Positions 6,701-32,613 of a stretch of DNA of 64,000 bases are shown here, piece by piece; position 1 is the stretch's first letter; every line of letters begins with the position of its first letter. The stretch spans positions 1-64,000 of the forward strand of contig QPGO01000005.1 of assembly GCA_008632985.1 (NCBI GenBank), in the 5' to 3' direction. A program made the translations under genes and the position numbers. Source of the stretch: Psammoneis japonica (lineage: Eukaryota). The notes under the pieces are model-generated. The model ran no database searches and was not told the origin of the DNA. It saw only the letters and a program-made list of their open reading frames with translations.

Positions 6701-6867
6701 CCATTTTCATCTTGTGGCAGAGAATTTGGATGTTGGATGTGAGCCCAATGAAAACTTCCATTGTCCAGATCATGATGGATTGGGGGGGGGGGGGGGGATC
6801 TCTTGCTTGTTGCAGTGCTTTCATGTGTGCCAAACAACAGATTGTCAAAGGCTGGCTGTTGTGCCAA

Positions 6868-7106: not shown

Positions 7107-7229
7107 AGTTGATCAAGATGCTTCAGAGCAGCAAAGTTCAGTTGACACATCAAAAAACAAAATTAGACAAACCAACAGCAACAGAGGCACAGGTGAAAAA
7201 GTTGTCAAAATCATTGCTGCCTGCTTCAC

Positions 7230-8230: not shown

Positions 8231-9105
8231 GCCACCTGGCTAATCTGTTGTTGTTTCAATGTGTGCCTTTGGGATTTTCTTGTCATCATGCTGAACTCCA
8301 CCATGGCTTCATGAGGCTGGAGGACACAAACAAGCAAAGCAGTGCACTCCAGGTTTCACAGACCCCCCTGAATTGCATCAATTCTTTCTGTGCCCCCAAA
8401 ATGGTTTTTGCTTCTTTCTTCTTGCCACAAAAAGAAGCCAGAGCAACCGCGATGCAGGAAGCTGCATCAAAAAAAAAAGCGCCATTGGTTGCATGGTGCA
8501 TGACCACAACAAAAGGAGCACAGATTGTCATGACAACAATGCTTGCCATGACAGTGCAGCATTCAGACACTCTTCTCAGTGCAACAAACAAATGATGTGA
8601 GCCATAAAAGCCAACGGATGAAGCCAAATCAACAAAGCACAAACAACATGGCCAATGGCATGTGGTCAAAGCCCACAACCGTGTGGTGTGCAAAATGACT
8701 TTTTGTTGTGTGATGACACAACAATGCAACAATCAGGCCTTTCTCAATGCAGTGAACAAACAATGCAGGCCATGAAAGCCAACAGATGAAGCTGAGTCAA
8801 TGAAGCACAAACAACATCATGGGGCTGCTGACAGATGCAAAAACATGCAACATCAGTGGAAGTGGCTCTTTGAGTGCTTCTCAATGAGCCCACAATCAAT
8901 TTTTGAAGAAAAGGCAAAAAAGCAGATTCTTGCATTGATTTCTGATTCAATGATGCCTGGCTGAATTTCAAAAGAGGTCAAATGGGGACAAAAGTGTGAC
9001 AGCATCTCAACAAGTGCTGCTGTGTGGCACAGCTGCATTGAAAAAACTCACATTTTGCTTCTGCACGTGCAAGATTTCATGCTTGGGGCAAAGTGTGCAG
9101 AGTGT

Positions 9106-9510
9106 TGGAGGGGCAAAAGTTGCAAGCTCAGAGCGGGGCCAATGGCAAAGAACAGAGACAATGGCAACAAATGCATGTGCACACATGTGGTGCCACAAGG
9201 GCATGTTTGGTTGGAGGGTGATGCCCCGTTGTGCTCAACAGATTCCTGTCATTGTGGTCTGCCCAGCTCATTTGCAAACTTACTTTGAGGTTGTTTGGGC
9301 TTTTGTTTGTGGCCTCTGGGGTGAAGTCTGGACATGCATGGCTCCTCCAGTCTGTTTCTTCAATGAGAACAACCTGTGCTGCTGCTGTCACCAGAACAAA
9401 TGCTCTGAGACAGATGATGCAAGCTTCACAGCTGACCTCACTCTGAATGGCCACAGTCCAAAGTCAATGAATGCACTCTGTTTGTGCTTGACTGCCAGCC
9501 TGGCAAAGGC
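9106..9510 (+). pseudogene. Hypermutated copy of IMP1-like exon 2 and its 3' flank (source ~31131-31525)
   Basis: Colinear with the source. NKCMCTHVVPQGHVWLEGDAPLCSTDSCHCG vs DKCMSTYVVPQGHVWLEGDAPLCSIDSRHYG, followed by indels and stops. Confidence 0.92.
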
Positions 9511-11445: not shown

Positions 11446-12026
11446 CCAGCAAAAAACCGAATTGAGTCCTCATGACTGAACTGAGTCCTTGTCCGACCCA
11501 CATGTTGAATCGATCGATAAAATGATGAAAAAACCAAGTAATCAAACTGTTTTTTTTGCTGTGATAATCTTCAATTGCTGCTGCTTCTGACCATGTGTTT
11601 GGATTTGGGTGTTTCAGTTTTCTCCGGCTGCCCGTTGCCGTCGAACATGGTCGTTTGCATTTTTTGAAGCGGAAACGAGATTCAACAATTCTCATGTAAT
11701 TTTTTTATCAAGACACGTACATCATATATCCTCACTGCTCCGTGCTGCTTGCTGATTTGGAGATATGTTGAATTTCTTCTGGTACTTGACACGTAGAAAT
11801 GTACAGGGGGGCCGAATTGAGTCATTACGCGAAAAAGGTGCAACTTTGGCAGCTAGATTAAGCTAATCCCAAGCCCATTTCACAACCGACTATCATCAAA
11901 GAACTCGTTAAGAGATGATGAAAAGCTAGGAAATGCGAAGAAATGGTCAGTTTTAGGCCAATGATGGGCAAAAAATGGCCATTCAACATATGGCAAAAAT
12001 AAGGACTCAATTCGGTTTTTTACTGG
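11446..12026. mobile_element. Non-autonomous DNA transposon (MITE, Tc1/mariner-like), 581 bp, 28-bp TIRs, TA target duplication
   Basis: TA|CCAGCAAAAAACCGAATTGAGTCCTCAT (11446-11473) ... ATAAGGACTCAATTCGGTTTTTTACTGG|TA (11999-12026); 26/28 identity. Confidence 0.85.
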
Positions 12027-12530
12027 TACGGGGTCGTACCGGGTAAGAGAGTGCGTGGTCGGTGGTGCGCAGTGTGCTGGGTGGTGAAGTGAAGAAGGAC
12101 GGACCGAGGGTGCGGACATACGGGCGCGCGAGTGGTGGCGGTGGCTCCGTTGAGCGGGTGTACGGTATGTCGTCGAAGAAGAGCTTGGTAGTTGGAGAGA
12201 TGTGTTGAGAGGGCGAAGCCGAAGCTAAGGCGCATGATAGATGCTGTGTCTATCTCAGTGATAACATCATTCCTACATAGGGCCCTACGGTAGATACTGC
12301 GATCTCTTTTTATCGGCCTCCTTATTAATTGTGTTGTCTTTGACATGCAATAAACTTGATTCGTCGAACGCAATCATTCCTACGTAGATACTGGGATCAT
12401 TATCACTGTGTGCCAAAAATGCCAATGAAAAACGTTCTGGGGCACGCACGTGCAGTTAGACTATACCGAATACCATTCCTCAGAGGGATAGCACACCATA
12501 CCGGTATGCAGCTGCATAGGCTAGCAGAGG

Positions 12531-12903
12531 TATGACGTTTGGAGACCTACGACGTGTCTTCCGACTCACAATCTGCCCGCTTTCCCAAGTGGTTCTTCTG
12601 AATTCGGATGGGTGGTGGTTCATCCCTGGCTTTTTCTGCTCTCGCATGACTGCTCTGAGAGTTGCGACCCTCTTTTCCTGTTTCTCGATCTTTTGTTAAA
12701 CTTGGCACCAAGTTCCTGGTGGCACTGAATGTTCTCAGCAAAAATGGCCATGCATTCCTCGAACGAGCCACAGCCGAGATCGTTTCTCTGCAAATGAACT
12801 GAGACCTTGATTGCATCAATCCGCTGTTTCGAGTCATTTGTCAAACCCGAAACGTCGTCAAGTCGTTCCAAACAGCGCATCACGAAATGCAAGGATCTCT
12901 CAA
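12531..12903 (-). pseudogene. Deleted copy of the 3' end of the BTB-like gene (source ~31531-31985)
   Basis: MRCLERLDDVSGLTNDSKQRIDAIK...CGSFEECMAIFAENI and RDEPPPIRIQKNHLGKRADCES match the 31546-32613 protein. Carries internal deletions and a frameshift. Confidence 0.92.
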
Positions 12904-13144
12904 TGCTTCATCTGGTGAGACAAAAAAGGACAAATGACAGAAAAGAGTTCTTCTTGGCGTGAGCAATCGATCCTGTATTGAGGACAGTTCTTCATTCTGC
13001 AGCAATGTAAGCAATTGTTGACAGAACCACGACCATTATATTGCGATCTTAGTCTTCCATACTAAAACCTGTATCGACTCTGCCCCAGTGTTCAAAAATT
13101 GGTTTCCTTGTCCTTGTAGATTTGACTCGCCGCCACGACAAACT

Positions 13145-13855
13145 ATGCTAGGGTATAAAGCTTGTCGGAGTGTTGCCCTTTCGAAACTAAACGTGTCGCA
13201 ACACATCGCTGCAAAGACGAGCATTGTGCTGAACGCCGCCAATCACGTAATTATCGAGAGCCTCCACCTCCACCGACCCATGTACAGCTTCTTGGCGGTC
13301 GTTGGGTGAATACGAAATCACCTTGGAAAGCATTGTATCGTAGAGAGGCGTCACGACAAAGGCACTTGTGACACCCGGATCGACACAGACAGGGCTACCA
13401 GGAATATTCGCAGCGGGTGTGCGTGGAAAGAGTTTGAGAAGAGTACCTTGTGAGTTATGAACAACTGCACAAATAACAGCATATCATTCCGTACTCATCT
13501 TCTGCATAAATTCTTGCTTCGAGCGCATTTTCAAATTTGTGTGGCATAAAGACGTGAGTTTATTGTCCAGATGGCGGCTTACATTCTTAGGGCAAACCCC
13601 AACCGGCACCCGCATACAGCATACCCTTCACGAAATCGACGTTGTGAATTGTGAAGACACGGCTTCAGTAAAACGGGATGTTCCACCTGAAGGCGATTGT
13701 TCATTTCCATGAAGTGAAAGTCCTGTTGTTCATCGTTCATCCACCGAAAACTCGACTGCACTGGCACTGGTGTAATCCACCTCCTCGATAAACTTGACGA
13801 CTTGTTTCATCATGGCCTCACGTGTTGACGGCAACAACAGACAGGATGGCGATGC
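13145..13855 (-). pseudogene. PCCA: Biotin carboxylase-domain pseudogene fragment, most like propionyl-CoA carboxylase alpha
   Basis: Manual translation across frames: SPSCLLLPSTREAMMKQV...AVEFSVDE / FHFMEMNNRLQVEHPV / VDFVKGMLYAGAGWGLP* / ALEARIYAED / VCVDPGVT...TPLYDTMLSKVISY...ALDNYVIGGVQHNARLCSDVLRH*FRKGNTPTSFIP*. Multiple stops and frameshifts. Confidence 0.85.
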
Positions 13856-14400
13856 TCATGTATCAATTCAAAGGGCCTGTTCGGACATTCGCCTGTGATT
13901 GGGTGCCTGTCCTAAATCGTCCGCGTCTCTCTCGCTCAACAAGGCTGTATTCATGATATAGACGCAACAGGCAAGAAGGATTGGCGGGATTGGTGTGTGG
14001 TTGGGTCCCTCGTCCAGTGACACACACTCTTCCGACCGTGCCATTTCATGGTCCAATTCTTATGAAACCGCAAAGCAGTGGTTGGCGAGTATTTAAAGTA
14101 GAAAGGGCTCTTTGTTGACTTGTTGTCACGAGCGTGTATGTAAAAGTACGGTACTTTTTCTTTTCTACAATGAGCGGTCGATAGAGCATCTCTAGAGAGC
14201 ACACGTTTTGCTGATGACAAATATATTTTAAAACGCTTTTGCCGGAGCAGTAGCAACTAAAGTAGAATCGTAGATTGAAATATGTTTTGCAAGGAGCACT
14301 GCGGTTGCAACCCACATTTCTCAAAGAAAGCCAAGTAATTTCTCTAGGGTAGATAGCCAAGTAGATGTTTCGATTCATGTAACACAAAGCATGCAGGAAC

Positions 14401-15813
14401 CTATCTAGAGTTTTGGGTCCGAAATTCGCGGAATGTGACTGGAACATAAAAGAGTGGACGATGCGGCGGAATCGGTTCCAGGTCGTTCGACTCTTGTGTT
14501 GGCAATGGTCGTCCAACCTGATACTCAGATACTTGCTGTCCAGAAAGGGCAACAGGAATAATATCCAGGATTATGGGAATTGTCGGTCTGCATAATGGTG
14601 CATGATTAGAAGTGCCATTGTTTGTAGTAAGCGTTGGACTCGGTACTGCTGATTTCGGGACGAAGTACGGGGTGCCGTAGTTAGATATTACCGTCGTGAA
14701 GGTGGCATTTCCACTCTGGTTTTTTGTAGCTACTTGATCTTGGGGGAGGGTGCTGCTACTGCCATAGGCAAGATCCATCGTAACTGTTGGTTCGGCAGCA
14801 ACAGTTGGTGCTTCTGAGACAATCCCGCCTTGGAAAAGCGTGCTTGCAAAGTCTGTCTTGCATGGTCGTTGGGCGATCTGGGGAAACACATCAGAAGGAA
14901 CCTTGTCGAACTCGGAGCATTGCATTTGCTGTTGCAATGTCGACACGGTAAGTTCTCGTTCGGTTGGTTTGTTGACAAAATGAAACAGCTCTCCCGATAC
15001 TTTCACACCGGTCTTCCTGCCATCTACAGGCATAGAAGTTCGTACTACAGGAGGCAGTTCGTAGAAATCTGGTTCTAATCCCAAGAATCGGGCTTGACTT
15101 GGGGTCCGTTTAGCTCGTCGTGGCTGACGAGCAATGTCACAACAGAGATCTACTCTATCACGCAAGAAATTTGGATGGTAGTATGCCCCCTTATCTGGTC
15201 CGTGCTTCATTCGCACAAAGCCGTACGCCTGGAGCTGTCGCAAGAAAGATGCCATTTTGGTTTGATTGAAGTACCATTGGATGATGTTCATCTCAAAAGC
15301 ATCCTTGTCATGCACTTTGAAAGCTCTTCCATGAGGTCGCCAAGATGCAATGTTCTCCATACCCGACTTTTCCAAGTCACTCAAGAGCCCATGAAGGACC
15401 AGAGGAAATGGCTCATTGGCTCTCGTTTGCAGAGACATTGTTGTTGGATCAACAAGTCGTTCGCCATGATTAAATTCGGCTTCGGCCTCAAATGGGGCCA
15501 GTGGCTGGTGATTCACGAATGCATCATTGTCAGGGTTCTCTTCCCTCCTCGTCTTTTCTGCGTCGTCCTCTGGATCCGAACCGAGAAGACCATCAAAAAA
15601 TGACTCCATTGTTTGATCTTCCGCAAGATACTTTAACATCAAGTCACCGAGTGAAACTGGAGAGCTGCTTCTAGAAGTGGGAAGAGCAGCCGTCACGGCG
15701 GGCTCCTCGTTCATGCTCGCTTGATCATTCAAAATCATGCAGCTGTTGTCCTCTGCCGAAGTGTCACAAATGGCCTGAACATTGTGGCGCAAGGCATCTC
15801 CACACTTTTTCAT
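14401..15813 (-). CDS. Heat-shock transcription factor (HSF DNA-binding domain protein)
   Basis: FPLVLHGLL...SWRPHGRAFKVHD...YFNQTKMASFLRQLQAYGF...GPDKGAYYHPNFLR. First in-frame ATG at 15813; true start uncertain. Confidence 0.92.
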   Translation of the reverse strand: MKKCGDALRHNVQAICDTSAEDNSCMILNDQASMNEEPAVTAALPTSRSSSPVSLGDLMLKYLAEDQTMESFFDGLLGSDPEDDAEKTRREENPDNDAFVNHQPLAPFEAEAEFNHGERLVDPTTMSLQTRANEPFPLVLHGLLSDLEKSGMENIASWRPHGRAFKVHDKDAFEMNIIQWYFNQTKMASFLRQLQAYGFVRMKHGPDKGAYYHPNFLRDRVDLCCDIARQPRRAKRTPSQARFLGLEPDFYELPPVVRTSMPVDGRKTGVKVSGELFHFVNKPTERELTVSTLQQQMQCSEFDKVPSDVFPQIAQRPCKTDFASTLFQGGIVSEAPTVAAEPTVTMDLAYGSSSTLPQDQVATKNQSGNATFTTVISNYGTPYFVPKSAVPSPTLTTNNGTSNHAPLCRPTIPIILDIIPVALSGQQVSEYQVGRPLPTQESNDLEPIPPHRPLFYVPVTFREFRTQNSR

Positions 15814-16779
15814 TAGCACTGGTGGACAAGCTGAGTGCACGCCATCAGGGTCGATGTTGTCTTTCGAATTGTAACCTCTTCGTCACTACTGTAGGGCTAG
15901 TGGTACCATGTTGCATGAAGACCAGGCACTAGGGCCCTACAGTACTTACTCTAGCTGGGTGTTTTCAATGAACTTGGATTTGTGATGTGTGTGCGGCGGT
16001 CATCCCGTAGAAACTCCACAGTTCTGTACGGTACGACAGACTACTACATAGACTCAGACATAGACTGCGTCAGTACAGTACATAGAATGTTCTACTTGAC
16101 CGGCATTTCTGGGGGAAATGGTGGACATTTATGTAATCATCTGTTTGTCTCAAACAAGACGCAGCATAAATGTGGGGCCAGCCACAGTGGAATGGAGAGG
16201 GTCATTCCTACATCATCACACATCATGGACAGTGGATCACTCTCAGGTTCATCCGGTCCACTGTGGCGGCACCCCAATTCTTACAGTGTGTGAAAATGAC
16301 CCTTTTTCCTCTGCTGCACAATGAATCTGGATGGGGTCATTTGATCTCTTGAAAGCGACTGGGTGACACATCGTGGCAACGTGGGTGGCCTGGCATGCAA
16401 CGGAGCACCAAACACCGCCAGCTGCTGCCAACTCTGATGTTTGTCAGCCATCAGTGCCCTCAAATCCTCCCTCCCTGCTGCAAGCCAAATGGCGCTTGGG
16501 GGGCAAAAATGGCCTGAAAATGCTGTGTGTGACCAGTGTGTCCAAAAATTGAAAAATGTGCAGGTGGGTGGGCAGCCAATGACCTCTGGTGGCAGTGGAG
16601 AGCCGGCGACAATGCAGGCTGGCCCACGAACAGAAGCAAGGGCAGTGCACAACCCAGCAGCAAGAAAAAAGCCTGCAAATCATCAAAATTCTCAAGGAGG
16701 TTTTGGCTGCATCTTGTTGACAGAGTTCTCTGCAACTGAGCTGGCGCCCTCCAAAGCCACTGTGTTGTTGCCTCAAATT

Positions 16780-17780
16780 TGTTGATGAACAAGTTGTGGC
16801 TGTTGGGCTTCTGAGCTGACAACTGCTGCTGTGGCCACTGTTGCTCTGCTTGCCACTCTGACAGAGCAACAGCTGCTGGCTGCTGTGGCGGTTGCGTGGC
16901 TCCTGCAGCCGGGTGGCAATTTGGAGATGCAGTGCCAGCCAGGTGACCAGCGCAGGGGCAGCACAGCACTGCTGCTGCAGCTGTTGCTGTCGGCACCTGC
17001 CACAACCACTGCCACAACTGCCACAACCTGTGACTCTGGTGGAACAACTGCCACTGCTGCTGCAGTGACTCCTGTGGCTGGGTGACAAAGGGGGGTGCTG
17101 TGCTCTGGCCAGGCGACAAGTGGCAAGTGTGGAGATGTGCCACGCACCACTGCTGCTGCCCCCCCCCCCCCCCCCCAACCACTGCCGCAACTGGCTGCTG
17201 CTGTGACAATCACTGCTGCAACTGTTGGCACCTGAGACTTCTCTGGCAGGGCAACAAAAACTGCCGCTGCTGCAGCTGTGGCGATTCCCATGGTCGGGTG
17301 ATGAGAAGGGGGTGCAGTGCTGGTTTTGGGTGATGAGAAGGGGACAAGCCACCACTTCTGCAACTGCTGCTGCTGTGACCAACTGCTGCCACACATGTTG
17401 CCACTTGTGACTTTGGTGGGGTGACAACAACCACCACTGCTGTGACTGCCACATCAACTCTTCCGCAGTCAGGTGAGACAAGGGGGGGTTGCAGCACGGG
17501 TCAGGTGATGAGAAGGGGATGCACTGCTGCTGCTGCAACCACTGCTTCCCCAACAACTGCCACTGCTGTGACCATCAACTGCTGCAGTCATTGCCACTTG
17601 CAACTCTGGTGAGTTGACAACCACTGCTGCAACTGCCACAATGATTCTTGCAGACAGACAATGAGAAGGGCACTGTCAGGTGATGAGAAGGGGATGTTCC
17701 ACCACTGCTGAAACTGCTGTTCCGCCCCGATGGTGATTCCCAGCCGGGTGATGAGAACTGGAGCTGCTGCTGCTGCAAGG
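16780..17780. repeat. Low-complexity (CTG/CCACTGCTG) region with recurring GGTGATGAGAAGGG motif
   Basis: Motif or near-match at about 17297, 17329, 17504, 17660, 17679 and 17747, within CTG/ACTGCC-rich sequence. Confidence 0.7.
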
Positions 17781-20372
17781 AGTTTGTGTGCTTGGACTGC
17801 TTGGTGGTTGCTTCTTGGCCACTCTCATTTTGGCTTTTGTGGAGGCTGTGTTGCTTGCCAGTTGGGCATGACTCTTTTTGTGTTGTCTTCCACACCTTGT
17901 CCATTGGCAGCAGTGGCTGCTGCATTCCATGACACTCATTTCCAGCAGAGGTTTTGGACTGATGCTTTGCTGGTGCATCAACACATGCTCCTCTGATTGC
18001 CTTGAGCTCAGCTTCTCAACAAGGTGAGGATCAGAGTTGCATGCACTGCACGTGGCTTCACAGATTGCTTGCACTGCCTGACATGCCATGTGTTTTTCAC
18101 TTCATTCCAGCAGAGACTTTGTTGCATGTGTTTTCATTGTGTGTCCATGAAGCTGGCCTTGCCAATGTCTTCCTCTCCCTCCTCTGCTCCACAGGATGAT
18201 TCGGCCATTGTTTGAGATTGTGGTTTGTGAAAGAGAGCCTTGCACACTCATCTAAACTGGGGGACAATGCCAATGGACACATCAACATTGGAGCCCAAAG
18301 CTGGTGCTCCTGCCTTTGCCCAAAATGTGCCTTGATGAAGCTTTGGAGGCATTGAGGGCAGTGCTGGTTCAAAATGATCCCACCCATGCATGGTCATGTG
18401 CTGTCCGATGTCAAGATCCGGACAGATTTTTTGGGCTGAATCTGTCAAAAGAGTGGGACCCGCCCTTTCATTCTCAAAGCACAGGCCAAATGCTTTGTCA
18501 AAATGCTTGTCACTCTTCAAGAAGGCTGTGCAGCATGGCTCATCATGCCAATGAACGTCAACATCTTCAGGCTTTGGAAAGCACCTTGCAAGACGACCAC
18601 ACAGATGCAAGCACACAGGTCATGCCCCCCCCATTCTCCTCTTGCTGTCCACAACATGAGCACATCAGACAGAATTTGTCACTGACTTGACAGATTTTGA
18701 TGATGACACAAGTCCATCAAACCTCAACCAAATGGTGCTTGGCAACAGATTTGAAAATCATTTGGATCCACCAGCAGCAAGTGAGCCTGGTGGCATTTCC
18801 ACTTTACCCAAAACTTGCCAACAGATTCTCTCCACAAATGGTCATGGATTGACTGCATTTGCACAAGCTGGCAAGCTTGCTGCTGCAGCAAGCTGTGGCA
18901 CAAAAAACTCTGGAACAACAAATGTGTGCAGAAGCAGCACCAGGGCCCCAGCAGAAATGCCACAAAAGTCCGGAATTTTGTAATTTTTTGACATCCCTGG
19001 TGCTGATTCCATGACAGATTCTACGCAGTTTGTTGATGTTCCAGACTTTTTGACATTTCTGCTGAGGCCCTGGTGCTGTTTCCATGGAAATTTGTTGTTC
19101 CAGAGCTCTTTTGCAAGGTGGCAAGCTGTCAGACTGTGACACAATGGAGCAAGCTCTTCCTTTTCCAAGTTTGTTGGCAAGCTGTCCATTGCCTTTGCTG
19201 CCTTTTGCTCTTTGGGTTGGCTCTCATGTCAGAAACTCTGCATTGGACAAAGCAGCTTTTTGCAATGCTCTGATTTGCTTTGGCGCCCAGTGTGTGGTGC
19301 TTGATGGCCCCACCCTCAACTTCAGATGAGTTTGATGTTCATGTGCTTTTGCATTTGGCAAGCTTCTCAAAACACAGCCACATTTGTGTTTTGATTGCAA
19401 TGCACACATCATGAGCAAAGTTTGCATCAAAATTGTTTCATTGACTCCTTGTTGCAGCCAACAAAGCAAAAGTTTTCAAAAGCACGTGCTCATGTGTGGC
19501 ATCTCCAGCTTGTCTTCCAACCCTGCATCTGTTGTTCACAACAATGGAGTGTTCTTTGTTGCCTCCAATGCTGGATGTCCCACCAAGCTGGCATCGTTGC
19601 TGACACACAGCAGCACTGTCTTGTTCTTTAGCCACATTTGTGCAACTCCATGGTGAAGGCACAGCCTGTGGCCACCTTGGAACCACTGGTTTTGACTTTC
19701 ACAGGGGCCACAAAGCTTGTTGTCATTGTTGTTTGTCATGAGTTGGTTTTGGGCAGCAAATGAAGGATGGTCTGTGGTTGGAACAACCAACACCAACCAA
19801 GCATTGTTGCCTGCATGAGCCCCCCTTTTCACACTGAAAAAGAGAATTGACAATGAAAATGAGAGCTGAGGTCAGCTGCACATGCAAAATTTTTGAGTTT
19901 TGTGCATTGTGGTTGCATCCACTGATGCCAAGTCTTGAAGCTTTGGGGAGCCCACATCTGGGAGGAACTTGGTGCTTGCACAGCAACAGGCCCTGGCACC
20001 ATCTTCCCACTGGGGTTGCATGATGCTGATGATCTGGTGAGAGGAAGGGATTCTCAAGCCTCTCAAGCAATGCTCATTCTTGCAGCTACAAATCCACTTG
20101 CTTCAAAGTGAGTGTGGCTTCTGCCACTTGTCTGAGAGTCATGACATGATCATTTGCAAGGTTGCTTGAGCTTCTTTGCAAAACAACCCATTGCACAATG
20201 CCACGAAAGGTGTGGGGCAATGGCTTGCTCAAGGCACGGCTTGAGACATTTGCATTTTTTCTCCTTTTTTGTGATCCAACAGGAGAACTTGTTCTGGAGT
20301 CTTAAAAAGGCAAGACTTGGCATCAGCATTTGCAATTCTCACACTGAGTGCGTCAATCATGTGTGCCCACCA

Positions 20373-20606
20373 AGTCACGACTCAACGTCATTCTGGTCGC
20401 ATCTCACGACCACAACCCAGACTCAGATTTTCTCTTCAAAACAATTGGCTCATCACAAAATCGATTCAAACAGAAGCAACGACATTCGTCATAATTTCTA
20501 GACAACGACTTTCAACAAGCGTCTGTTTACCTCTGTCGCTGTTCACATTGCTGCCAACCTCCGAGGTCTCATCCATCCTGCTCAGCTGCAGGACTGTATC
20601 TCGACT
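20373..20606 (+). repeat. 5' LTR (234 bp, AGTC...GACT)
   Basis: Direct repeat of 27372-27605; preceded by TSD CACCA. Confidence 0.95.
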
Positions 20607-20768
20607 GGTTGTAGAGACCAATTTACGCGTTGACGAGAGCTCCTGACCGAGTCATCGTCACGGACGCTTTCGGTTTTTGATTTTGAAGCAAACCCGGGAA
20701 ACAGCTGAGTCTCTCTCGCTTCTCTCGTCTTCACTCTAACAAGAACCTCCCATGCTGCACTCTCTGTC

Positions 20769-23700
20769 ATGGCTGCCATCGACCCAGATGTTCTGGCGAA
20801 GGCGTTTGCCGATGCAATGGCCGCTGACGCCGCGGCGACCGCTCATCCGGCTCCAACCAAGCCGTTACGTGGTGGAATTCACCCAACCCACGGGGTTTAC
20901 ATTGGTGGTTCCAAACTCAACAACAACTACGAACAATCCAACGATAGAACCTGCCGATTCGCCTCTCAGCGCCGTCATCCCAAGGCTCTCGACTCGATAG
21001 AACGATCTCTCCGCGATCAACAAGCTTCCGCAATGACTTCCAAGTTCAACGGTCGACTTGAGATTTCGGACGGTCCCATCAACGAGCTTGACAAGGACCA
21101 TTTCGTCAAGACTGTTCGAGATCTAGTAGAAGCCCACGGTCAGCAGACGTTCTACCATGTCAAGGACAGCGACGACAAGGTCCAACATGTCTTCGACCAT
21201 CTTCACGAGTTTGCTGTGACCGATCTCGTGAACGAGTACACGGCCAGGAAAGCAGCTGCCGATGACACCAAGTACGACGAGATCGAGCTCGACGATGTCG
21301 GGCTCTCTCAACTTCTCGTTCACTCAAGAATCACTAACACCTTTCGCGAGAAAATCGAGACCAAGTTCAACCATCTTTTGGACTGCCAAGACTACCCTGG
21401 ATCTGTTCCATTCATGATGGCTCTCGATGCTTGCAATGCCAGCGCTCTAACGGACATTGAGACGGCTGAGAAGCAGCTAGAAGACCTTGGTTTGGTTGAC
21501 TGTCCCGGCGAGGATTGCACGGACTTTGCTGCCGAAGCTCTTCGCATCGTGAAAATTATGCAGACCGACTGCGCGCTTCCGGCGAACACAAGCTCCAAGC
21601 TGCTCCACAAGATCTCCTCTACGTCCTCTGAATGCTTCAATCGCCGAGTCTACAACAAGCTCGACGACGTCAAGGCTATGGAACGCAAGCACCGCCTCAA
21701 GAATCCTGCTGACATCGTGTCCGACAGCGATTGCAGAACGCTCGGACCGGTCGGTGTCATTGCGTGGATTCAAGAGCAACACAACGAACTCGTGAAGGAC
21801 GGGGAATGGCCTGCATTAGTCGCCAAGCTACCCGAGAGTAATCTTTCGACTACGGACAACCCTGGGAAGACGAAGCACTGTTGTGGTTGCGGTCTCGAGG
21901 GGTGCACCAAGAAGACGTGTCCGAAGTGCAACGCCAAACCGCCGCGCGATGATCCTCCTCCCAATCCGCCGCCTGCAGACGACCCTTCCAAGAAGAAGAG
22001 GCGACCCATCGCTGTCTGGCGCACTAAATTTGACGGAGAAACGAAGAAGGATAAGAATGGCAAGGAATGGAAGTGGTGTGCCACGTGCAAGGCGAAGGGT
22101 GCCGACAAACCTGGAATCCACCAGAAGCACTCTACCGCGGAACATGCCGACGACCGCAGGCAACCTCCCAAGGAGACCCCAGCCGGGAATTTGTCTTCCG
22201 TTGCTGATCCAGATAGTGGCGTGCCCATGGGTCCGCCCGCTCAGACTACCAAGGCACCAGAGGGAGACGAATCCGACCCCAACGAGTTGGTTTTCACGGG
22301 AATGTGGTGCGCGGCTACGGATCCCGTTACCGACCCGGATTTCTGTTCCGCCCCTGTCACTGCTGCAATTGTTGTTACTCCGGCTTCTTCGGCCGAGAGG
22401 GAGAGCGACACAGTCGTTAGTGCTGAGGTGGTTTGCATCGAAACGAGCCCACCTGCACTCACCTCAGTCGTGGATCCAGTCGTGTCTCCCATCGTGGTTG
22501 AGACTGTCACTCCCGAAGACGCCGATGACTTCTACGAATGCTCCGACGCTTTCTCTACCTTTGAAAACGAACCACCGGCTGTTGAGTTGTTTCCGGCCTC
22601 GAAGCTGTACTCCATCAAGCATCCAGATGAGTTCTTTGACGCTCCCGCACATTTGACGGATGTGCTGTCAGACGACACCAAGTTAGATCTCATCCTTGAA
22701 CACGACGCACACTTTGAAGACGCATGCTACGACTTGCCTCCGTGTGTTACGTATCGTGGCTTCGATTTCTACGATCCAGAGGTCCTGGACACGGATGATT
22801 GTCACGAGGACGTCGAAGACGAGCCCACTTCGCGTCGCTCACTCTTGGGTCGAGTCAAGCCACTCACATTCTGGCTCGCCGCCATGTTTTGGGAAACGGT
22901 GCTACATCTTTGCTTTGCTCCGATCCCATGTGTTCCTCGAGCTCTACGCCGCCAGCGCAAACTCCCAACTTTGCACGGGTTTCCAGCCTCCTGGATGGTC
23001 CCATCCATTGCAGTGATGGCATGGTCAGCAGTTTACGCCGGTCAACAGCCCGAGCATCCCTTCTCGCACGTGCCAAGTCGTTTTTCGACCGCCAGCTCTC
23101 AAGTCTACCACATTGTGGAAGAGCTGGATGACCGGATAGTGCCAGATGCGGGGTCACTGTTCGAACATCACAGGATCAAAGGCACGCAGGTGCTCACCGA
23201 GTTTGTCACGCGCCATCCGTCACACGCACTGAGCACTCGTCTCAAGGCCTGCTGGGAGAGCCCAGAAGTGGCTGAACGGTCTGATGCGATAGACGAATCA
23301 GCCTTCTTTGACACCTGTGAGGAACTGGAACCTCTCGACGACCAGAAGCATTTCTTTGACGCTCTTGAGGACTTCAGCCCGGATTTCTTCCGGTTTGACG
23401 AGCTCTGTCTGCCGCATCACATCGTGGACACCACCCATTTTCAAGATCCTGTGGAGCCATTGGAGGAAGCAAGTGTTAGACCAGTCGTCTGTGATGCCTC
23501 CACCATCCAACCACTCACCGGACAATCACAAGCCGACCTCCTTGCATCCGATCCGCAGGCACTCATCGGTCTGTCGGACGAGGCTCTCACGGTCGTCATG
23601 GATGCTGGTGCCACGTTAGCTGTCACCCCCGATGAAGATGATTTTACGGGGCCTGTGACTGTTCCCAAGAAACCCTTACAGATCAATGGGATTGCCAACG

Positions 23701-26700
23701 GTCTTACCATCCAGGGTGCCAGTCCGGTTGCGTGGGTGTTCACAACGCCGAGTGGGGCTACCATCCAACTGAACACCATGGCATGCCACGTCCCTGGAGC
23801 CCGTCAGCGCCTGCCATCGCCTCAACGCCTCTTCAACGAAGAGAAGGGGGTACGTGGGAAGTGTGAGGGCGATGAAACCACTTTCCGTTTACATGTTGAC
23901 GGGACAGGCAAGTTGGTCGTGCCATGTCATCCATCAAGCCACTCACCCATTGCGTCGATGACCAAGGGCGCATCTGCCGCTCCTCAAGTGAACCTTCAGA
24001 TCCTTGACGAGGAGAATCAAAACCTCACGGCAGGCCAAAAGCTTCTTCTCGAAATGCACGCCCGTTTTGGCCATTTGAACTTTGGTCGCGTCCAAGCACT
24101 TCTCCGCGCAGTTCCGTTCCTTTCGAACCGTTTCAAGTCCGCAGCGAAGTGTGACCACCCAAGATGCGAGGCATGCGAGTGTGCTAAAGGTCACAGACGC
24201 TCTCTTGGATCTACTCACAAGTCGACAGTCCCTGAACACGACGGGGCCCTTCGAGCTGACCATCTTCGACCGGGTCAGGCTGTCAGCGTTGATCATTTTG
24301 AGTCGCGCCTTTTAGGCCGCACCTTCGACTCTTATGGCACAGCCACGTCCAAGCAATTCAAGGGCGGTTGTATCTTTGTCGACCACGCCTCTGGCTATGT
24401 CCAGGTCGAGCACCAACTAGGTTTCTCCGCTGTTGAGACGATCCGCGCGAAGCAAGCGTTTGAGAAACATGCTTTGGACCACGGGGTCATCGTCCAAGAA
24501 TTTCTTGCCGATGGTGGCGCTTTCAAGGCCAACGCTTTTGTACAACATGTGCGAGAACATGAACAACGTCTCCGTTTTTGTGGAACCAACGCCCATCATC
24601 AGAACGGCATCGCAGAGCGGGGTGTCCGCAGCATCTCCAACATGGCGAGAGCGATGTTGCTTCATGCATCAATCCACTGGAAGGGGGGAATTGACAGCTC
24701 CCCATGGCCCATGGCAGTTTCTTGTGCCACGTGTGTCTACAATGTCACCCCAACTTCCAAAGGACATTGCCCAGCGGACATTTTCACCGGCTCGACAGTG
24801 CCAAGACATCGGTTGCGCGACATTCACACATGGGGATGTCCAGCGTGCGCACTTGACCCGACCCTCGCTTCCGGGAAGAAGCTCCCACGTTGGGAGCCTC
24901 GCACTTGTCGCGCTTTGTTCGTGGGACTCAGTGCCATCCATTCCAGTGAGGTTCCTTTGGTCCTCAATTTTCAAACTGGAAGTGTCACACCTCAGCATCA
25001 TGTGGTCTTTGACGATCTCTTCACTGCCGTCCCATCAATCGAGAGGGAGACGGATCCACCTGATCACTGGGAACACTTGTGCCTCAACCAATCAACATGC
25101 ATCCCTCTGGAGAAGGATCAGGCAGTTCATTTGCACGATGAGTGGCTCACCCCTCCAGAGCGTCAATGTAAAGAACGAGAACTAGCCAGAGCAACACGCA
25201 TTCGCGGGCATTTTGAGCCTGCTCCATCGATTGCTGTGCCGGATTCACCCACTTCTCGCGACGACGTCACCGATCGAGTCGCACCTGCGACTCAGCAGCC
25301 AACGCCACCAGTCCCACCTGCGACTCAAACTCCCACAGACTCTACGGACTCTACACCAATTCAGCCACCTGAACCTCAAGACAGTGACGGACTTCCGCCA
25401 CCCGAAGCGCCGACGGAACCAACAGCTCCTCCCCCAGTCGAGACACCTCCCATGACGAATCCAGAGGGAGTGCCAGGGCTGCGACGGTCTTCACGGTCAA
25501 CCAAGGGACAGTTCAACTCTGCCAAGTTTGTAGATGAGGTCTGCTTCAGCTCCGTCGAGGAAATGCCGCTGCCGATCGGACACGAGGCTCAACCAGCGTA
25601 TCTGGTGACTCTCGAGACGGATTTGGACAGTGGTGCCATCAATGTCGGCGATCCACGAGCCCACGCAGCTAGCAAGAAAACCAAGGACCCTGACATGCCT
25701 TCGTCACACAATGCTCTGAAAGGTCCGGACGCCGACGAATGGATCAAGGCGATGAAAATTGAAGTCAACGCACTCATGCATCGTCGAGCCTGGAAAGCAG
25801 TCGAGCGTCAGCCGCATGTGAATGTACTTCCAGGCACATGGGCACTAAAGCTCAAGAGACTCCCAGATGGAACCCCTCTCAAGCACAAGGCCCGATGCTG
25901 CATCCGCGGTGATTTGCAGAAAGAAGGAGTCGACTGCTTCGAAACCCACGCACCGGTTGTGCAATGGTCCAGCATCCGACTCATGCTCACTGCGGCATTA
26001 AAGGAGGGATGGACTGCATGACAGGTGGACTGTGCCACAGCCTTTTGCCAAGCTGACATCGCCGAGGAAGTTTGCACAACACCGCCGAAGGGATTTGCGC
26101 CAAGGTCGGGATTTCTCAAACTTTTGAAAGGACCATGCGGCCTAAAGCTGTCTCCCAAGGGCTTCTACGAGAAGTTGCGAGCTGGTTTAACCGAGCGCGG
26201 ATGGGTGCCTTCAGCCATAGATCCCTGTTTGTATTTCAAAGAGGGCATGATGTGTGTGGTGCACGTCGACGACACCGTTTTTGCTGGAGCTTCAGCTGAA
26301 GCTCTAGAAGCCGAAATTTGCAAGTTAGGAGTCTCCGACGACGAACATCGCCACGCATTTGAACTTAGAGACGAAGGAGAAGTCGGCAACTTTCTCGGCA
26401 TCAAGATCAAAAAGCTCTCCAAGGGTCGATTTCTACTCACTCAACCCGGTCTAATTGACAAGGTCCTGCGCACCGCACAGATGCAGGATTGCAATGGAGC
26501 ATCTGCTCCAGCTCCACCTGCGGCCATTGGTGCCGACACAGACGGCCTGCCTTTTGATGAACCCTGCGATTGTCGCTCAGTTGTTGGAATGTTGATGTGC
26601 TTGGCAGCGAACAGCCGGCCAGACATTGCACATGCCACACATCAAGCAGCTCGATTCTCGTTTGCACCCCGAGCGTCCCACGCTGCTGCAGTGAAGCGGA

Positions 26701-27350
26701 CACTCCGACACCTCAAAGCAACTGCTGCTGAAGGTCTCATTCTCAAGCCTGCGCAAGATCATCGAGTTGATTGTTGCGTCGATTCTGACTTCGCGGGGTC
26801 ATTTGGTGTGGAAGATGGTCAAGACCCAGTTTCTGTCAAGTCCAGGACTGGATGCCTTGTCTGCTGCGCCGGCTGCCCGCTTGTCTGGGTGTCCAAGCTA
26901 CAGACTCTTGTGGCATTGTCGACTGTGGAAGCGGAATGTGTCGCACTTTCTCAAGCCATGCGCGATCTCATCCCTGTTCGTGAAGTTCTCAAGGAGCTCA
27001 ACCACCACGCATTCGGAAAGTCTGACCGCCAAAACCCAATCACGACTCACTCCAAGGCTTTTGAGCTCGCAACCCAAGGCACCGATGACTCGCCTGTAGA
27101 GCAGAATGTCCCACCTGCGTCCGTTGTGTGCGAAGATAACTCCGCGTGCCTCAAGTTCGCACGTGTGCCCAAGTTGTCTCTGCGAACCAAACACATCGGT
27201 ATCCCGCACCACTGGTTTAGGACTAAAGTCGAACAATTGGAGATCGACATCCAACCCATCAGCACTCTAGAGCAACTGGCCGATCAGTTCACGAAGGGAC
27301 TGCGGACCGATGCGTTCCGTGCGGCTAGAAAGGCTCTCATGGGCTGGTGA
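20769..27350 (+). pseudogene. Copia gag-pol polyprotein, one in-frame stop and numerous Tyr->Cys/His substitutions
   Basis: Zn knuckle CCGCGLEGCTKKTC, protease MDAGAT, integrase HARFGH...CEAC, VSVDH and QNGIAER, RT KARCCIRGD and VVHVDD, RNase H DSDFAG/EAEC/EDN/ADQFTK. The two long ORFs are in one frame, split by TGA at 26019-26021 (likely from CGA). Confidence 0.95.
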
Positions 27351-27371
27351 GCTCTCTCGGTTGAGAGGGAG

Positions 27372-27605
27372 AGTCACGACTCAACGTCATTCTGGTCGCA
27401 TCTCACGACTGCAACCCAGACTCAGATTTTCTCTTCGAAATGATTAGCTCATCACAAAATCGATTCAAACAGAAGCAACGACATTCGTCATGATTTCTAG
27501 ACAACGACTTTCAACAAGCGTCTGTTTACCTCTGTCGCCATTCACATTGCTGCCAACCTCCGAGGTCTTGTCCATCCCACTCAGCTGCAGGACTGCATCT
27601 CGACT
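27372..27605 (+). repeat. 3' LTR (234 bp)
   Basis: Follows the polypurine tract; followed by TSD CACCA. Confidence 0.95.
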
Positions 27606-28855
27606 CACCAGCCTTGGCATGGGATGTCTCTGTGGCTGCCATCTCTTGGCTTTTGAAGGAGTTCATTGGCACACTCAGCAAACTGTTCTTGGGTTGGCTG
27701 TTGGCAGCTGGGCTTGCATGGTGGTGACCAGGGTTGACAACAGGTTTGCCCCCCAGCAGCAGAAGGCATGGTCATTGCTTTGGCCAACAACCCACCAAGT
27801 TTGTCGCACACTTCGTCATCATGTCATGAGATGACTGCCCCCCCCCCTTCTTACGTTGAAGGGCATGGGCTCATTTGTCACAGTTGTGCAAAGTGCAGCA
27901 GGCAGGAGAGTGGCTGCAGAAATGCAAAAAACAACATGGCCCGCACTCAAAATGGGCTGTCATTTTTCGCACCACCTGGGGCTGGAATGTGCTGCATGTT
28001 GGGTGGAGAGTTTGCAGCCGCCACACTTGTCACATGTCTCAGGTGGATCAGGAGGCTCATGGCCAAGTCTCAACAAACAAAGGGCATCTTGGAACTCTTG
28101 ATGTGAGAGCTTGGCGCCATTTGGCGCTTCTGCGTCTCAGTGCCCAGGCCATTTTGTTGGGTGGAGTGCTGAGGAGATCAACTTGAGTGCATCTCCTCAT
28201 GCAGCTTGGCTCTTTCCTTTTGACCATTTCCCACTTCACTGTGCCAAAAATGTCCTTGCAGACAGCCAAGGTGAGTTCAGCACAGCCACAAAGTGAGCCA
28301 ATCACGCAAGAACATGCGAGGGTGCTTTTTGCGTCAAAGTTTTGCTTTGTTGGCTGCACTGGACAAGGGATTGACAGCCATGCAAATTTGATTGGGAGGG
28401 CAGACAAGACTGCTCTTGGGTTTTGTTGTCTGCCAAGGTCTTGCCAAACAGCGCTGCCCTCTTCGACATCAGCGAGCACGACTTGCAGCCCTTGGCCACT
28501 TTGCAGGCGCTGCCACTCTCGTGTTGTGGGGGCTTCTGCACACTGTGCTCCATGGGTGGCACCACATCACCATTTGGGATGAATCTTGAGCAACCAAGGT
28601 CCATGCATTGGATTTCTCCGCCACCCAGCAGCCAAAAGCTTGGGGTGGCAATTGAGCTCCGCACACACCAGCGGTGGTTCCCATCACAAGCTCAATGGCT
28701 TTTTGCCTCCTCAGCTGACAGGGGTTGTTCATGTGTGTGTGGCAGGCACAGTTTTGTTTTGGCAGCAGCAAGTTTGAAGCAAGTGTCGAACCATCACTGT
28801 GGTTCGATTTTCTGCCCGAGTGGGGCCATGGGCTGGTGTGTGTTGAAACACCCGT

Positions 28856-29120
28856 GATGGCGTCATCGCGAAGTGGCGACATCCAAGGATGGCCGCGTCA
28901 TCACGAAGCGGCGACACCAAGGATGGCGTCATCACGAAGCGGGCGGGGCGCGACGTTGCATCCGCGCGGCAGGATGGCATGCATCGCATCACGAAGCTTT
29001 ATGTATTGCCTGCATCTCATCAGCTAGCTCGCGGCATCCAGGTACTGTAGCATAATAGAGGATGGCGTCAACACGAAGCGGCGACATCCAACTGCTTCGC
29101 ATTGACGTCATCACGAAGCA
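28856..29120 (+). repeat. Cluster of ~6 imperfect GATGGCGTCATCACGAAGCGGCGAC repeats
   Basis: Copies at about 28856, 28888, 28922, 28973, 29061 and 29105, irregularly spaced. Confidence 0.8.
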
Positions 29121-30294: not shown

Positions 30295-31473
30295 ATGACG
30301 GCTTCCGCAGCGTTGCGAAATCGAATAGCATCGCTTCAGTATGGACATCCGCTTATATCGATGCATCCTTATACTGGTAGAATGTTGAGTGGCTGTTGTC
30401 CCCTAAAGCCTCGTTGGACAACTTTTGAGATGAAAAGAAAGGTGTCGTCGACATCGGGAGGTAGAATACAGAAGCATGCGCTCTCAAGAAAAGAAAGACG
30501 GGCGCGAGAACGGAGGAGAGGAAAGAAAAGCGATCGCATAACGACGACTGATTCGTCATCGTCTGTGAATATGACGAAGCAGCGACAATCATGGAGAGAC
30601 AGACTCAAGCAGTTTTCTCGACGCTTGTATCCAGCGTTGAAAAGACCAGGTGGAGAGAACGGTTATTACAAACGAGAACATGTAGTTGCAATGCTAAAGA
30701 GATTTCCAATATGGGCTGGACTGGTGCTGTTCGCGACGCTCGATGAGACTTCACCGTTTGTAATTGATGAAGCCGGCGGGCCTAGTATGTTGCCTACAAT
30801 ATTTCCAATTGACGATCTTTTTCTGAGAAACACCTTGGCGTGGCATAGGCTGTTGGGATGGCACTGCAATTATCAAGTTGGAGACGTAGTAGTCTGGAGA
30901 AATCCAGAGACTCAAATGTACTCCTGTAAAAGAATAGTGGGACTGGAGAGTAAGAAATCAGTATTGAATTCGAGGTTAAGGCAGCCGTGTCAAACAACAG
31001 GTTGTTTTCTCACGTGACTTTCAATGTTTGCCCGGGCAGATCAAACGGTATTGCGATACGGAGAGTTTGTAGAGCTATACAAGGATCGACCAGATCTTGG
31101 AATTCACTGGCCTTTTGATGATATGACCGCTGGAGGGGTGAAAGTTGTGAGCTCCGAGTGGGATGCGACGGCAGAGAACGGAGACAATGCCGACAAATGC
31201 ATGAGTACGTATGTGGTGCCGCAAGGGCACGTTTGGTTGGAGGGTGACGCCCCATTGTGCTCGATAGATTCGCGTCACTACGGTCCAGTCCCTGTGGACT
31301 TGCTTCGAGGTCGTTTGATCTTTCGTTTGTGGCCTCTTTGGCGAGCTCCAGATGTGTACGGCTCCTCAGGTCTGTTTCTTCAACGAGAACGACCCCTGCC
31401 GCTATCAACAGAACAAATGTTGCAAGATGGACGGTACAAGCTCTACAAGCGACCTCACCCCCAACTTCCGTAG
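30295..31473 (+). CDS. IMP1: Mitochondrial inner membrane peptidase subunit (S26 family, IMP1-like), 2 exons
   Basis: GPSMLPT (catalytic Ser), KRIVGL (Lys), VPQGHVWLEGD...DSRHYGPVP. GT-AG intron 30950-31039 joins the frames. Start codon uncertain. Confidence 0.88.
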
Positions 31474-31545
31474 TTCAAAGTCAACACACGTCTTCTGTTT
31501 ATGCACGACTAGTCTAGTTAAGGAAATTACATGAAGTTTGGAGAC

Positions 31546-32613
31546 CTACGACTTATCTACCGACTCACAAGCTGCCCGCTTTCCCAAATGGTTCTTCTGG
31601 ATTCGGATGGGTGGTGGTTCATCCCTGGTATCGGTGCTCTTGCCAAAGAGCTTTTTCTGCTCTCGCATGACTGCTTTGAGAGTTGCGACCCTCTTTTCCT
31701 GTTTCTCGATCTTTTGTTTAATGTATTCAGTTGCATGTTCACTTTCCGCATCCTCTAGACCCAACTTGGCATCGTGCAAACGTTCCTGGTGATAACTAAT
31801 ATTTTCAGCAAAAATGGCCATGTATTCCTCGAATGAACCACAGTAGAGATCTTTCCTCTGTAAATGAACTGAAGACTGAATGGCGGCCTTGATCGCGTCA
31901 ATCCGCAGTTTCAAGTCATTTGTCAAGCACGAAACGTCGTCAAGTCGTTCCAAACTGCGCATAATGAACGATAAGGATCGCTCAAACAGTAGAGAGAGGT
32001 TGAGACGATCGGCCAACTCGCAAAGCGAAGAGCAATTGTCCGAATCAATCGATCTGACCAAAATGTTCACCATGGCATCCAAAACTGGAAGGCACTGAAC
32101 GTAATGCGCAATCTCGCAGCATGCAACCACAAAGTCACACGAAACGTCCTCACTGCTTTTCTTCTTCAAGACGAGGTCAACAAACTCTCGCACTGCTTCC
32201 AATTCAAACGACTCCAACGAAAAGTGGAGGTGACTTTTATTCTCTGGCTTTCCAGAGCGAAACAGTTCTCGCGAAGAAGCGAGTGCATAAATCGTATCAC
32301 ACGCCTCTGCGATGGGTCTCAGTGGTAGATACGGTACGGTTCCTGTCGAGGTTTGAAAGTCAATTGTATCGGCCTTCAAAGTATCCAAAAAGCTCTGCCT
32401 CCTCTTTTCATCCCCACTCGGATCTTGCTCAAAAATGGACGCATGGACCTCCCTCTGATACTTCTTGGCATCTTCTACTCGTTTCTGAGCCAACTTGTAC
32501 CCTTCCTCGCTGAGTTCGTTCGGGTCAAGATCTTCCAACCCATGCGTCTGCACGTAATGATCCAAGTCCTGGATCAACCGATGACCATCTCCGTTCTCCT
32601 GCTGCTCGTTCAT
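31546..32613 (-). CDS. BTB/BACK-like domain protein with C-terminal coiled coil
   Basis: Intact ORF. The stretch FELEAVREFVDLV...CEIAHYVQC...IDSDNCSSLCELADRLNLSLL has the BTB-BACK pattern. ATG at 32613. Confidence 0.7.
   Translation of the reverse strand: MNEQQENGDGHRLIQDLDHYVQTHGLEDLDPNELSEEGYKLAQKRVEDAKKYQREVHASIFEQDPSGDEKRRQSFLDTLKADTIDFQTSTGTVPYLPLRPIAEACDTIYALASSRELFRSGKPENKSHLHFSLESFELEAVREFVDLVLKKKSSEDVSCDFVVACCEIAHYVQCLPVLDAMVNILVRSIDSDNCSSLCELADRLNLSLLFERSLSFIMRSLERLDDVSCLTNDLKLRIDAIKAAIQSSVHLQRKDLYCGSFEEYMAIFAENISYHQERLHDAKLGLEDAESEHATEYIKQKIEKQEKRVATLKAVMREQKKLFGKSTDTRDEPPPIRIQKNHLGKRAACESVDKS

Follow-up and report, generated by a model that had tools for sequence, protein, structure and literature searches.

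The first 64,000 nt of contig QPGO01000005.1 of the diatom Psammoneis japonica (positions 1-64,000; hereafter the window, to which all regional statements refer) carry a Ty1/copia retrotransposon with long terminal repeats (LTRs), which lies among blocks of DNA that have lost nearly all of their TpA dinucleotides. The best explanation for these observations is a process that, after insertion, changed A:T to G:C specifically at TpA, both in the copia element and in the silent blocks; taken as a whole it is regarded as probable, and somewhat firmer confidence is placed in everything it contains except the chemical step. According to this explanation, the element would have been inserted recently, and would still be polymorphic, in a silent stretch of the diatom genome, after which a mutational process would have changed A:T to G:C only at 5'-TpA-3', yielding TpG or CpA depending on the strand that was hit. 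The same process would be near completion in the surrounding silent blocks, where a slower and separate decay of CpG to TpG or CpA would follow.

The copia element is complete, with its two LTRs, a 5-bp target duplication, a reverse transcriptase (RT) of the RVT_2 type and the order protease, integrase, RT, RNaseH (Table 1). Its coding region forms a single frame, from 20709 to 27347, that is interrupted by nothing but one TGA, and therefore no frameshift is present in the element, as an earlier note on this DNA had claimed. The stop would fit a CGA>TGA change, that is, a CpG transition at a conserved Arg, which is also the sole route to a stop codon that substitutions at TpA and CpG leave open. 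Pfam returned RVT_2 and, weakly, gag_pre-integrs and SH3_retrovirus in the element, and did not recover the integrase core at E<=0.01; the homologs carry PF07727.

What this otherwise intact frame has lost is tyrosine. In the RT/RNaseH part, aligned with 60 homologs that are 50-61% identical, none of the 11 conserved Tyr columns is kept, TGY Cys standing in 8 of them and CAY His in 3, whereas 209 of the 243 other conserved columns are retained (Fisher p 1.8e-9). This open frame contains 2 Tyr and 20 Cys, in agreement with the earlier count of 2 and about 20, and its catalytic YVDD motif is read in the alignment as HVDD, with CAC at 26262-26264, as had also been reported. An extended Pol alignment of 849 residues, in which the stop was read as X and 38 homologs of at least 560 aa each were included, gives a similar result: 1 of the 16 conserved Tyr is kept, the others having become Cys (9), His (5) or Trp (1), versus 271 of 315 other conserved residues (p 1.6e-11). 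Hence 14 of the 15 losses end as Cys or His, and the claim that Tyr gave way to these residues across copia Pol is borne out. The Tyr columns located N-terminal of the stop, at 25662, 25935 and 25947, are now His, Cys and His, respectively. It was also considered whether Cys and His are natural at these sites, and the pattern is absent from all 60 RT/RNaseH homologs, which have Tyr there. Additionally, the protease motif is D-A-G (gat gct ggt, 23601-23609), just as the earlier note had read it.

These alignments establish the direction of the change, ancestral TAY codons having become TGY or CAY, which is the reverse of fungal repeat-induced point mutation (RIP), as first suggested. The specificity for TpA was established by comparing codon classes. 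At codon position 2, where Tyr>Cys was set against Lys>Arg, Asn>Ser, Gln>Arg, His>Arg, Asp>Gly and Glu>Gly, A>G occurred at 9 of 16 TpA sites versus 1 of 84 ApA, CpA and GpA sites (p 5.6e-8). At codon position 1, where Tyr>His was set against Phe>Leu, Trp>Arg, Cys>Arg and Ser>Pro, T>C occurred at 5 of 16 sites before A versus 1 of 42 before T, G or C (p 0.005). Changes from TpA to TpG or CpA alone can explain 18 of the 45 conserved residues replaced in RT/RNaseH; in the 849-residue alignment, 59 conserved residues are replaced, part of them purely by such changes, and 25 events could be polarised, including some across codon boundaries (e.g., Thr>Ala after a T-ending codon), the test being built so that only A>G or T>C can appear. 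Their products are 16 TG and 9 CA, arranged in 12 strand runs versus 12.5 expected, and therefore both strands were hit without strand runs, as had been claimed for the strands.

CTA/TAG contexts are enriched among the TpA that survive in the element (at 63-79% of their genic share), with about 20% retained in ATAC, GTAT and TTAA and none left in ATAT. The Tyr codons at CTA sites, with 2 TG and 2 CA products, are too few to tell A from T as the target, and the number of surviving TA per 500 bp along the element looks close to Poisson by rough arithmetic. The two Tyr codons that survive in the RT/RNaseH frame, at 26166 and 26232, correspond to Phe in homologs; the context is the spared CTAC in one case and GTAT in the other.

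The LTRs of one element are identical at integration, and their comparison consequently records what came later. All 14 differing bases of this pair fall in interconversions among TA, TG, CA and CG, namely 5 TG<->CA doubles, 3 TA<->TG/CA and 1 CG<->CA, and no other site type differs between the two LTRs, among about 200 other sites per LTR. A TG<->CA double has the look of two independent hits on one ancestral TpA; counting these doubles as half of the sites hit in both copies, each LTR would have had about 15 ancestral TpA, of which about 10 were hit in both (5 visible as TG<->CA), 3 in one and 2 in neither, so that about 77% of the sites were hit. The tandem pair at 1745-2021, made of 139-bp copies that are 90.6% identical, presents 13 differences, 12 of which are interconversions of this kind, including 4 TG<->CA doubles. 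When the LTR and tandem-copy differences are pooled, 26 of 27 are transitions at pyrimidine-purine (YpR) dinucleotides, those at CpG being an added minority.

The age of the insertion is constrained by an empty site. Contigs of sequencing run X1 were assembled separately from the window assembly, with a word depth of about 55, and one of them passes directly from 20367 to 27606, sharing 5 letters at the join, that is, a target site with a single CACCA. Its overlap with the contig of the left flank is exactly 30 letters, as expected of an assembly-graph branch between two alleles, and the insertion seems to be heterozygous or polymorphic in the X1 sample, where empty and filled sites would coexist. 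Because the LTR differences are all of one type and the empty site is present, the changes arose in chromosomal DNA, once the element had recently been integrated. If an insertion is still polymorphic and its LTRs already diverge by 6%, all at one dinucleotide, TpA sites would change at several hundred times the average rate.

The same observations make it hardly credible that the substitutions were introduced by ADAR- or APOBEC-like editing of RNA or cDNA during retrotransposition and fixed on integration, or that they reflect an intrinsic avoidance of TpA by the element family. It is true that ADAR-type enzymes favour a 5' U, as mentioned in a preprint (bioRxiv 10.64898/2026.01.13.699255), and that the element is a retroelement with many related copies, its summed X1 word depth being 3,450-6,200 versus 54-84 on the flanks, a sum that is not usable as a copy number. 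However, the 14 differences between the LTRs all belong to this type, and both copies of the target duplication are intact; both strands are hit; and single-copy flanking blocks without retroelement domains are hit harder than the element. As for avoidance of TpA, the Tyr of YVDD and the protease motif have been destroyed, and so a functional adaptation is not what is seen.

TpA is also depleted in blocks on either side of the element (Table 1). TG and CA have observed/expected ratios (o/e) of 1.5-2.0 in the four most depleted blocks, and the block at 2049-11218 contains TA-free runs of 2,416 and 2,304 bp, the chance of a 2,416-bp run at the genic TA density being about 1e-37. Within the 64-kb window, these blocks stand against TpA o/e values of 0.53-0.58 in genic DNA and in the island between them, with edges that are sharp to within a few hundred bases; the transitions at 16282/16283 and 28999/29000 are abrupt, dense TA being found up to 16282 and again from 29000. 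Contigs of a second run, X2, skip 82 nt (13007-13088) with GT..AG ends and therefore look like spliced RNA; their cover is restricted to 11629-15866, inside the normal island, although absence of cover in this single run is weak evidence. TpA loss appears sharply confined to regions without transcript cover beside genes of normal composition. The copia element is mobile DNA. The blocks are without recognisable domains, since Pfam matched no family in any of the 56 stop-to-stop open reading frames (ORFs) that measure 110 aa or more and were taken from these blocks and their borders. With TGA as the sole stop in TA-free DNA, the blocks 1-11218 and 16283-20372 are rich in overlapping ORFs (110-376 aa), which occur in every frame.

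With respect to targeting, the X1 depth of the depleted blocks is 54-84 (57-61 in 2049-11218), which is the single-copy level. Additionally, about 1.6 kb at 30381-31985, where a signal-peptidase-like gene (in part) and the gene next to it lie, recurs as a diverged copy (73-74% identical) at 6511-6693, 9106-9493 and 12532-12903, split by two insertions. The parts of this paralogue located in the depleted block (6511-6693 and 9106-9493) have lost TA and CG, whereas the part under X2 cover and 30381-31510 are not depleted. Because the depleted blocks are at single-copy depth and only one of two paralogous segments is depleted, we infer that targeting is regional, directed to silenced or foreign DNA, and not triggered by homology. 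A multi-copy stretch at about 11.0-12.3 kb, with X2 cover and normal TpA, points in the same direction, as far as present copy numbers go. The earlier note had proposed a mutator targeted to repeats or heterochromatin, and the regional component of that proposal is upheld, while a repeat-induced trigger is not. A targeted enzyme is favoured over passive decay, given how fast the change would be, how sharp the edges are and how strictly one dinucleotide is chosen.

Table 1. Copia element, TpA-depleted blocks and DNA of normal composition in the window, with strand where one applies
Feature	Position	Strand	Basis or composition
TpA-poor block keeping about half of its CpG, with tandem pair 1745-2021	1-2048		TpA o/e 0.10, CpG o/e 0.51; 12 TA
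Block nearly without TpA and CpG	2049-11218		TpA o/e 0.028, CpG o/e 0.10; 16 TA and 55 CG in 9,170 bp; TG o/e 1.89, CA o/e 1.67
Island of normal composition between depleted blocks	11219-16282		TpA o/e 0.58, CpG o/e 0.85
Block nearly without TpA and CpG, left of copia insertion	16283-20372		TpA o/e 0.028, CpG o/e 0.16; 7 TA and 41 CG in 4,090 bp
Left target-site duplication CACCA	20368-20372		CACCA on both sides of element
Copia element	20373-27605	+	TpA o/e 0.27 (0.267), CpG o/e 0.95; 100 TA
5' LTR	20373-20606	+	234 nt, 94% identical to 3' LTR
Open frame: gag, protease, integrase, N-terminal part of RT	20709-26018	+	Pfam and homolog alignment
In-frame stop TGA, the only one in the frame	26019-26021	+	Arg in homologs, consensus ...GWxTRQVDY...
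RT/RNaseH open frame, 442 aa	26022-27347	+	Homolog alignment
3' LTR	27372-27605	+	LTR comparison, 234 nt
Right target-site duplication CACCA	27606-27610		CACCA on both sides of element
Right part of block hosting copia	27606-28999		TpA o/e 0.014, CpG o/e 0.45; 1 TA in 1,394 bp; CpG-dense at 28787-28999
Genic DNA	29000-62987		TpA o/e 0.53, CpG o/e 1.04; 1171 TA
Start of a further TpA- and CpG-depleted block, running off the window	62988-64000		TpA o/e 0.029, CpG o/e 0.17; 2 TA and 10 CG in 1,013 bp

The loss of TpA and the loss of CpG are separable, because each is observed alone: in the copia element and in 28501-29000, TpA is lost and CpG retained, and in the metagenome copia locus L041 the CpG o/e is 0.03, yet that of TpA is 0.47 and 11 of 11 Tyr are kept. 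Therefore, TpA loss would come first and fast, with CpG decay following slowly. In the copia element this decay has only begun, being represented by one LTR site, the CGA>TGA stop and three sites that read CG in other copies, and in the most CpG-poor blocks the CpG o/e has fallen to 0.10-0.17, with a TG/CA o/e of 1.7-2.0. Judging from composition, this CpG depletion with TpG/CpA gain is as expected from deamination of methylated cytosine. The resemblance to decay of 5-methylcytosine (5mC) at CpG also extends to the allelic differences, which are mostly CG<->TG/CA; however, such decay cannot remove TpA, as L041 illustrates, and in the copia element it is preceded by TpA loss. The 28787-28999 segment, which lies directly before the edge at 29000, has about 26 CpG in 200 bp and zero TA; it may represent a promoter that stays unmethylated within the zone of TpA erasure.

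DNA polymerase eta (Pol eta) has an A>G bias at WA motifs, and a Pol-eta-like error-prone repair in heterochromatin, perhaps triggered by the repair of deaminated methyl-cytosine, would bring A:T>G:C and CpG transitions together in the same blocks, where both are in fact found. This candidate of the earlier note is highly improbable, since WA includes ApA, which is not hit: Lys>Arg and Asn>Ser together amount to 0 of 26, and 1 of the 27 copy-pair differences is located at ApA. The loss of TpA without loss of CpG in the copia element and in 28501-29000 also argues against this type of repair.

The preceding comparisons assume that the bases are real. It is very unlikely that they result from base-calling or assembly errors on modified DNA whose true sequence is TA and CG, a possibility left some room by the fact that one study only contains the DNA of the window and that the platforms used for the assembly and for X1 are not on record. 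The separate X1 contigs reproduce the depleted blocks with the same bases, presenting 5 differences in 2,572 nt (16283-20372), 16 in 2,344 nt and 11 in 1,395 nt, mostly CG<->TG/CA, TA<->TG and TG<->CA. In both the two LTRs and the two tandem copies, a context that reads TG in one member of the pair reads CA in its partner, and a context-driven miscall is disfavoured because of these identical contexts with different readings. A comparable depletion is present in distantly related copia elements from environmental assemblies: of 80 related copia loci from metagenomes compared for TpA and CpG o/e, two (L051, positions 1-2500, and L042) have TpA values of 0.12 and 0.18 and CpG values of 0.09 and 0.10, and in the protein P0329, 4 of the 5 conserved Tyr columns hold Cys or His. 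Finally, mutations of this type in the chlorarachniophyte Bigelowiella natans were called from Illumina reads (bioRxiv 10.64898/2026.01.13.699255).

As regards the chemical step, the natural tRNA substrate of TadA and ADAT2, A34, follows the invariant U33, and a 5'-T rule would therefore come with the TadA/ADAT2 fold. It can be tentatively proposed, at somewhat less than even confidence, that an A preceded by T is enzymatically deaminated to hypoxanthine, which would be read as G, with an ADAT2/TadA-type deaminase as the candidate. Since TpA reads identically on both strands, A>G and T>C are indistinguishable, by flank context as well, and all of the data fit T>C equally. A second possibility, which is considered unlikely, is that the thymine is attacked, a TET/JBP-type dioxygenase oxidising it at TpA in silenced DNA to 5-hydroxymethyluracil (5hmU) or 5-formyluracil, with mispairing with G, or excision and bad repair, leading to T>C. 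5-Formyluracil does mispair with G, and dinoflagellates belong to the same supergroup as diatoms; we know of no thymine modification in the latter. According to two papers, dinoflagellate 5hmU is made by a TET/JBP homolog, is enriched on repeats and takes part in transposon silencing, and older work on Crypthecodinium cohnii found thymine replaced preferentially in TA and TC (PMC11572971, PMC11071213). This likeness, a modification of T:A pairs on transposons with a reported TA/TC preference, is offset by the fact that 5hmU is described as an epigenetic mark rather than a mutator, has no known mutational footprint and, when mapped at base resolution in Breviolum, showed no sequence preference (PMC11572971, PMC11071213). 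No excess of T>C is found at TpC in the present data, where 0 of the 27 LTR and tandem-copy differences are located, Ser>Pro amounting to 0 of 12.

Some points weigh against a TpA-specific, post-insertion process as formulated above. The base attacked, A or T, is not readable from the sequence, and action on A is an assumption. The protein collection, searched with the RT/RNaseH ORF at near and shorter lengths, gave a best identity of 63% and no member of the same family, so that part of the internal Tyr loss could be inherited from a mutated source copy. No protein domain is recognised in the depleted blocks, so that their description as mobile or foreign DNA is likewise assumed, and the confinement to mobile DNA is that of one 64-kb window. 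One LTR difference, the in-frame stop, 2 of the 13 tandem-copy differences and many of the allelic differences are CpG transitions, and it is possible that a single machinery acts on both TpA and CpG. Furthermore, X1 possibly derives from the same sample as the assembly, which, with a single study, limits their independence.

The earlier note knew of no description of such a process in algae, but a 2026 preprint by Mettrop et al. has measured one in Bigelowiella natans (bioRxiv 10.64898/2026.01.13.699255). Mutation-accumulation lines sequenced with Illumina carried 302 nuclear mutations, of which 231 were located in DNA of an integrated giant virus and of a virophage, and 230 of the 231 mutations in these hypermutable regions were A>G or T>C, placed on TpA (bioRxiv 10.64898/2026.01.13.699255). 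The rate was about 6e-7 per site per generation, about 1000-fold over the rest of the genome, in a silent single-copy virus; TpA-depleted coding sequences were enriched in reverse transcriptase and DDE domains; and an ADAT2-like adenine deaminase was proposed, with citation of a report on amphioxus ADAT2 (bioRxiv 10.64898/2026.01.13.699255).

By analogy, the process in P. japonica is probably of the same kind. Both consist of near-exclusive A:T>G:C substitution at TpA, with TpG or CpA as products whichever strand is hit, in particular regions beside normal genes; in B. natans, TpA-depleted sequences with more CpA and TpG contain an excess of RT and DDE domains, and the targets are silent, invader-derived and single-copy and hence not homology-triggered (bioRxiv 10.64898/2026.01.13.699255). 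The excess in rate is very large there, and in P. japonica it would be bounded indirectly by the LTRs of a still polymorphic insertion, with about 77% of their TpA hit and none of the roughly 200 other sites. On the other hand, the host is a chlorarachniophyte (Rhizaria) in one case and a diatom (Stramenopila) in the other, and the target a virus in the former and an LTR retrotransposon with unannotated blocks in the latter. The depletion also differs in degree, with a Rho of 0.45 given for the viral region versus TpA o/e of 0.014-0.10 over kilobases in the window (bioRxiv 10.64898/2026.01.13.699255), where CpG decay is layered on top and the sparing of CTA/TAG flanks is visible. Moreover, the process was measured in mutation-accumulation lines in B. 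natans, whereas it is deduced from sequence in the diatom. A full-text search gave this single earlier description of the signature, and the diatom would be a second, distant host with a different type of invader. A literature search that covered few subscription journals returned no report of TpA hypermutation in diatoms, and the accessible portions of papers on retrotransposons, mutation rate and DNA methyltransferases in Phaeodactylum tricornutum make no mention of it (PMC9998398, PMC2806351, PMC6604790).

Other known systems share some of these features. Like RIP in ascomycetes, the changes are substitutions only, specific to a dinucleotide and made in chromosomal mobile DNA, destroying coding capacity without frameshifts and within sharp limits; however, RIP converts C:G to T:A and creates TpA, whereas in the window TpA is destroyed and the GC content of the target rises, without strand-coordinated runs or any sign of a duplication trigger. 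Fungal RIP was accordingly rejected as the process, the direction of substitution being the opposite. APOBEC3 and ADAR also bring about enzyme-driven, context-specific transition hypermutation of mobile elements, with ADAR favouring a 5' U, but they act on replication intermediates or RNA in a strand-asymmetric manner, whereas both strands of integrated DNA are affected here, including DNA without retroelement domains.

Among the remaining features of the window, the stretch at about 11000-12335 has an X1 word depth of 407-455 versus about 55 around it, and X2 contigs end there with several continuations; it has the look of a short multi-copy segment that transcripts cover and in which TpA is normal. 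No Rfam match was obtained for 10500-16800. The island contains a gene for an HSF-type DNA-binding protein (14404-15882, minus strand), whose nearest clusters are HSF_DNA-bind, with Bacillariophyta as the commonest phylum. A glycosyltransferase gene in the window has its best named relatives in diatoms (Attheya 47%, Seminavis 46%), with no match above 50%, and the host is intron-poor. An atlas search with a U2AF-like gene yielded no usable taxon. When 120 copia homologs were compared with the window by tblastn, only 2 weak matches were obtained outside the element, both near 31020-31094.

To our knowledge, no characterised natural enzyme edits chromosomal DNA from A:T to G:C at one fixed dinucleotide; with the exception of the report on amphioxus ADAT2 cited in the preprint, this would be a new activity. 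It is conceivable, although short of probable, that diatoms and chlorarachniophytes, and perhaps much of the Stramenopila-Alveolata-Rhizaria (SAR) group, share a dedicated enzyme that edits A:T to G:C at TpA in the double-stranded DNA of silenced invaders. If so, this would represent a natural DNA adenine base editor acting as a genome defence and run to saturation, three quarters of the TpA of a retrotransposon having been erased while its insertion was still polymorphic. The presence of the signature in two distant lineages would allow the enzyme to be sought by comparing genomes with and without it.

There are also consequences for the reading of such genomes. LTR divergence, which is 6% here, would grossly overdate insertions; TA-free DNA gives long spurious ORFs in all frames, which is a trap for gene callers; and the fast divergence of copies makes repeats look single-copy, while protein searches fail on the products. 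In addition, mobile DNA becomes richer in GC through this process, opposite to the usual mutation bias towards AT. A second distant lineage would make the genome-defence-like mutator described in 2026 a general phenomenon rather than a curiosity, and would open it to comparative genomics and to diatom genetics.

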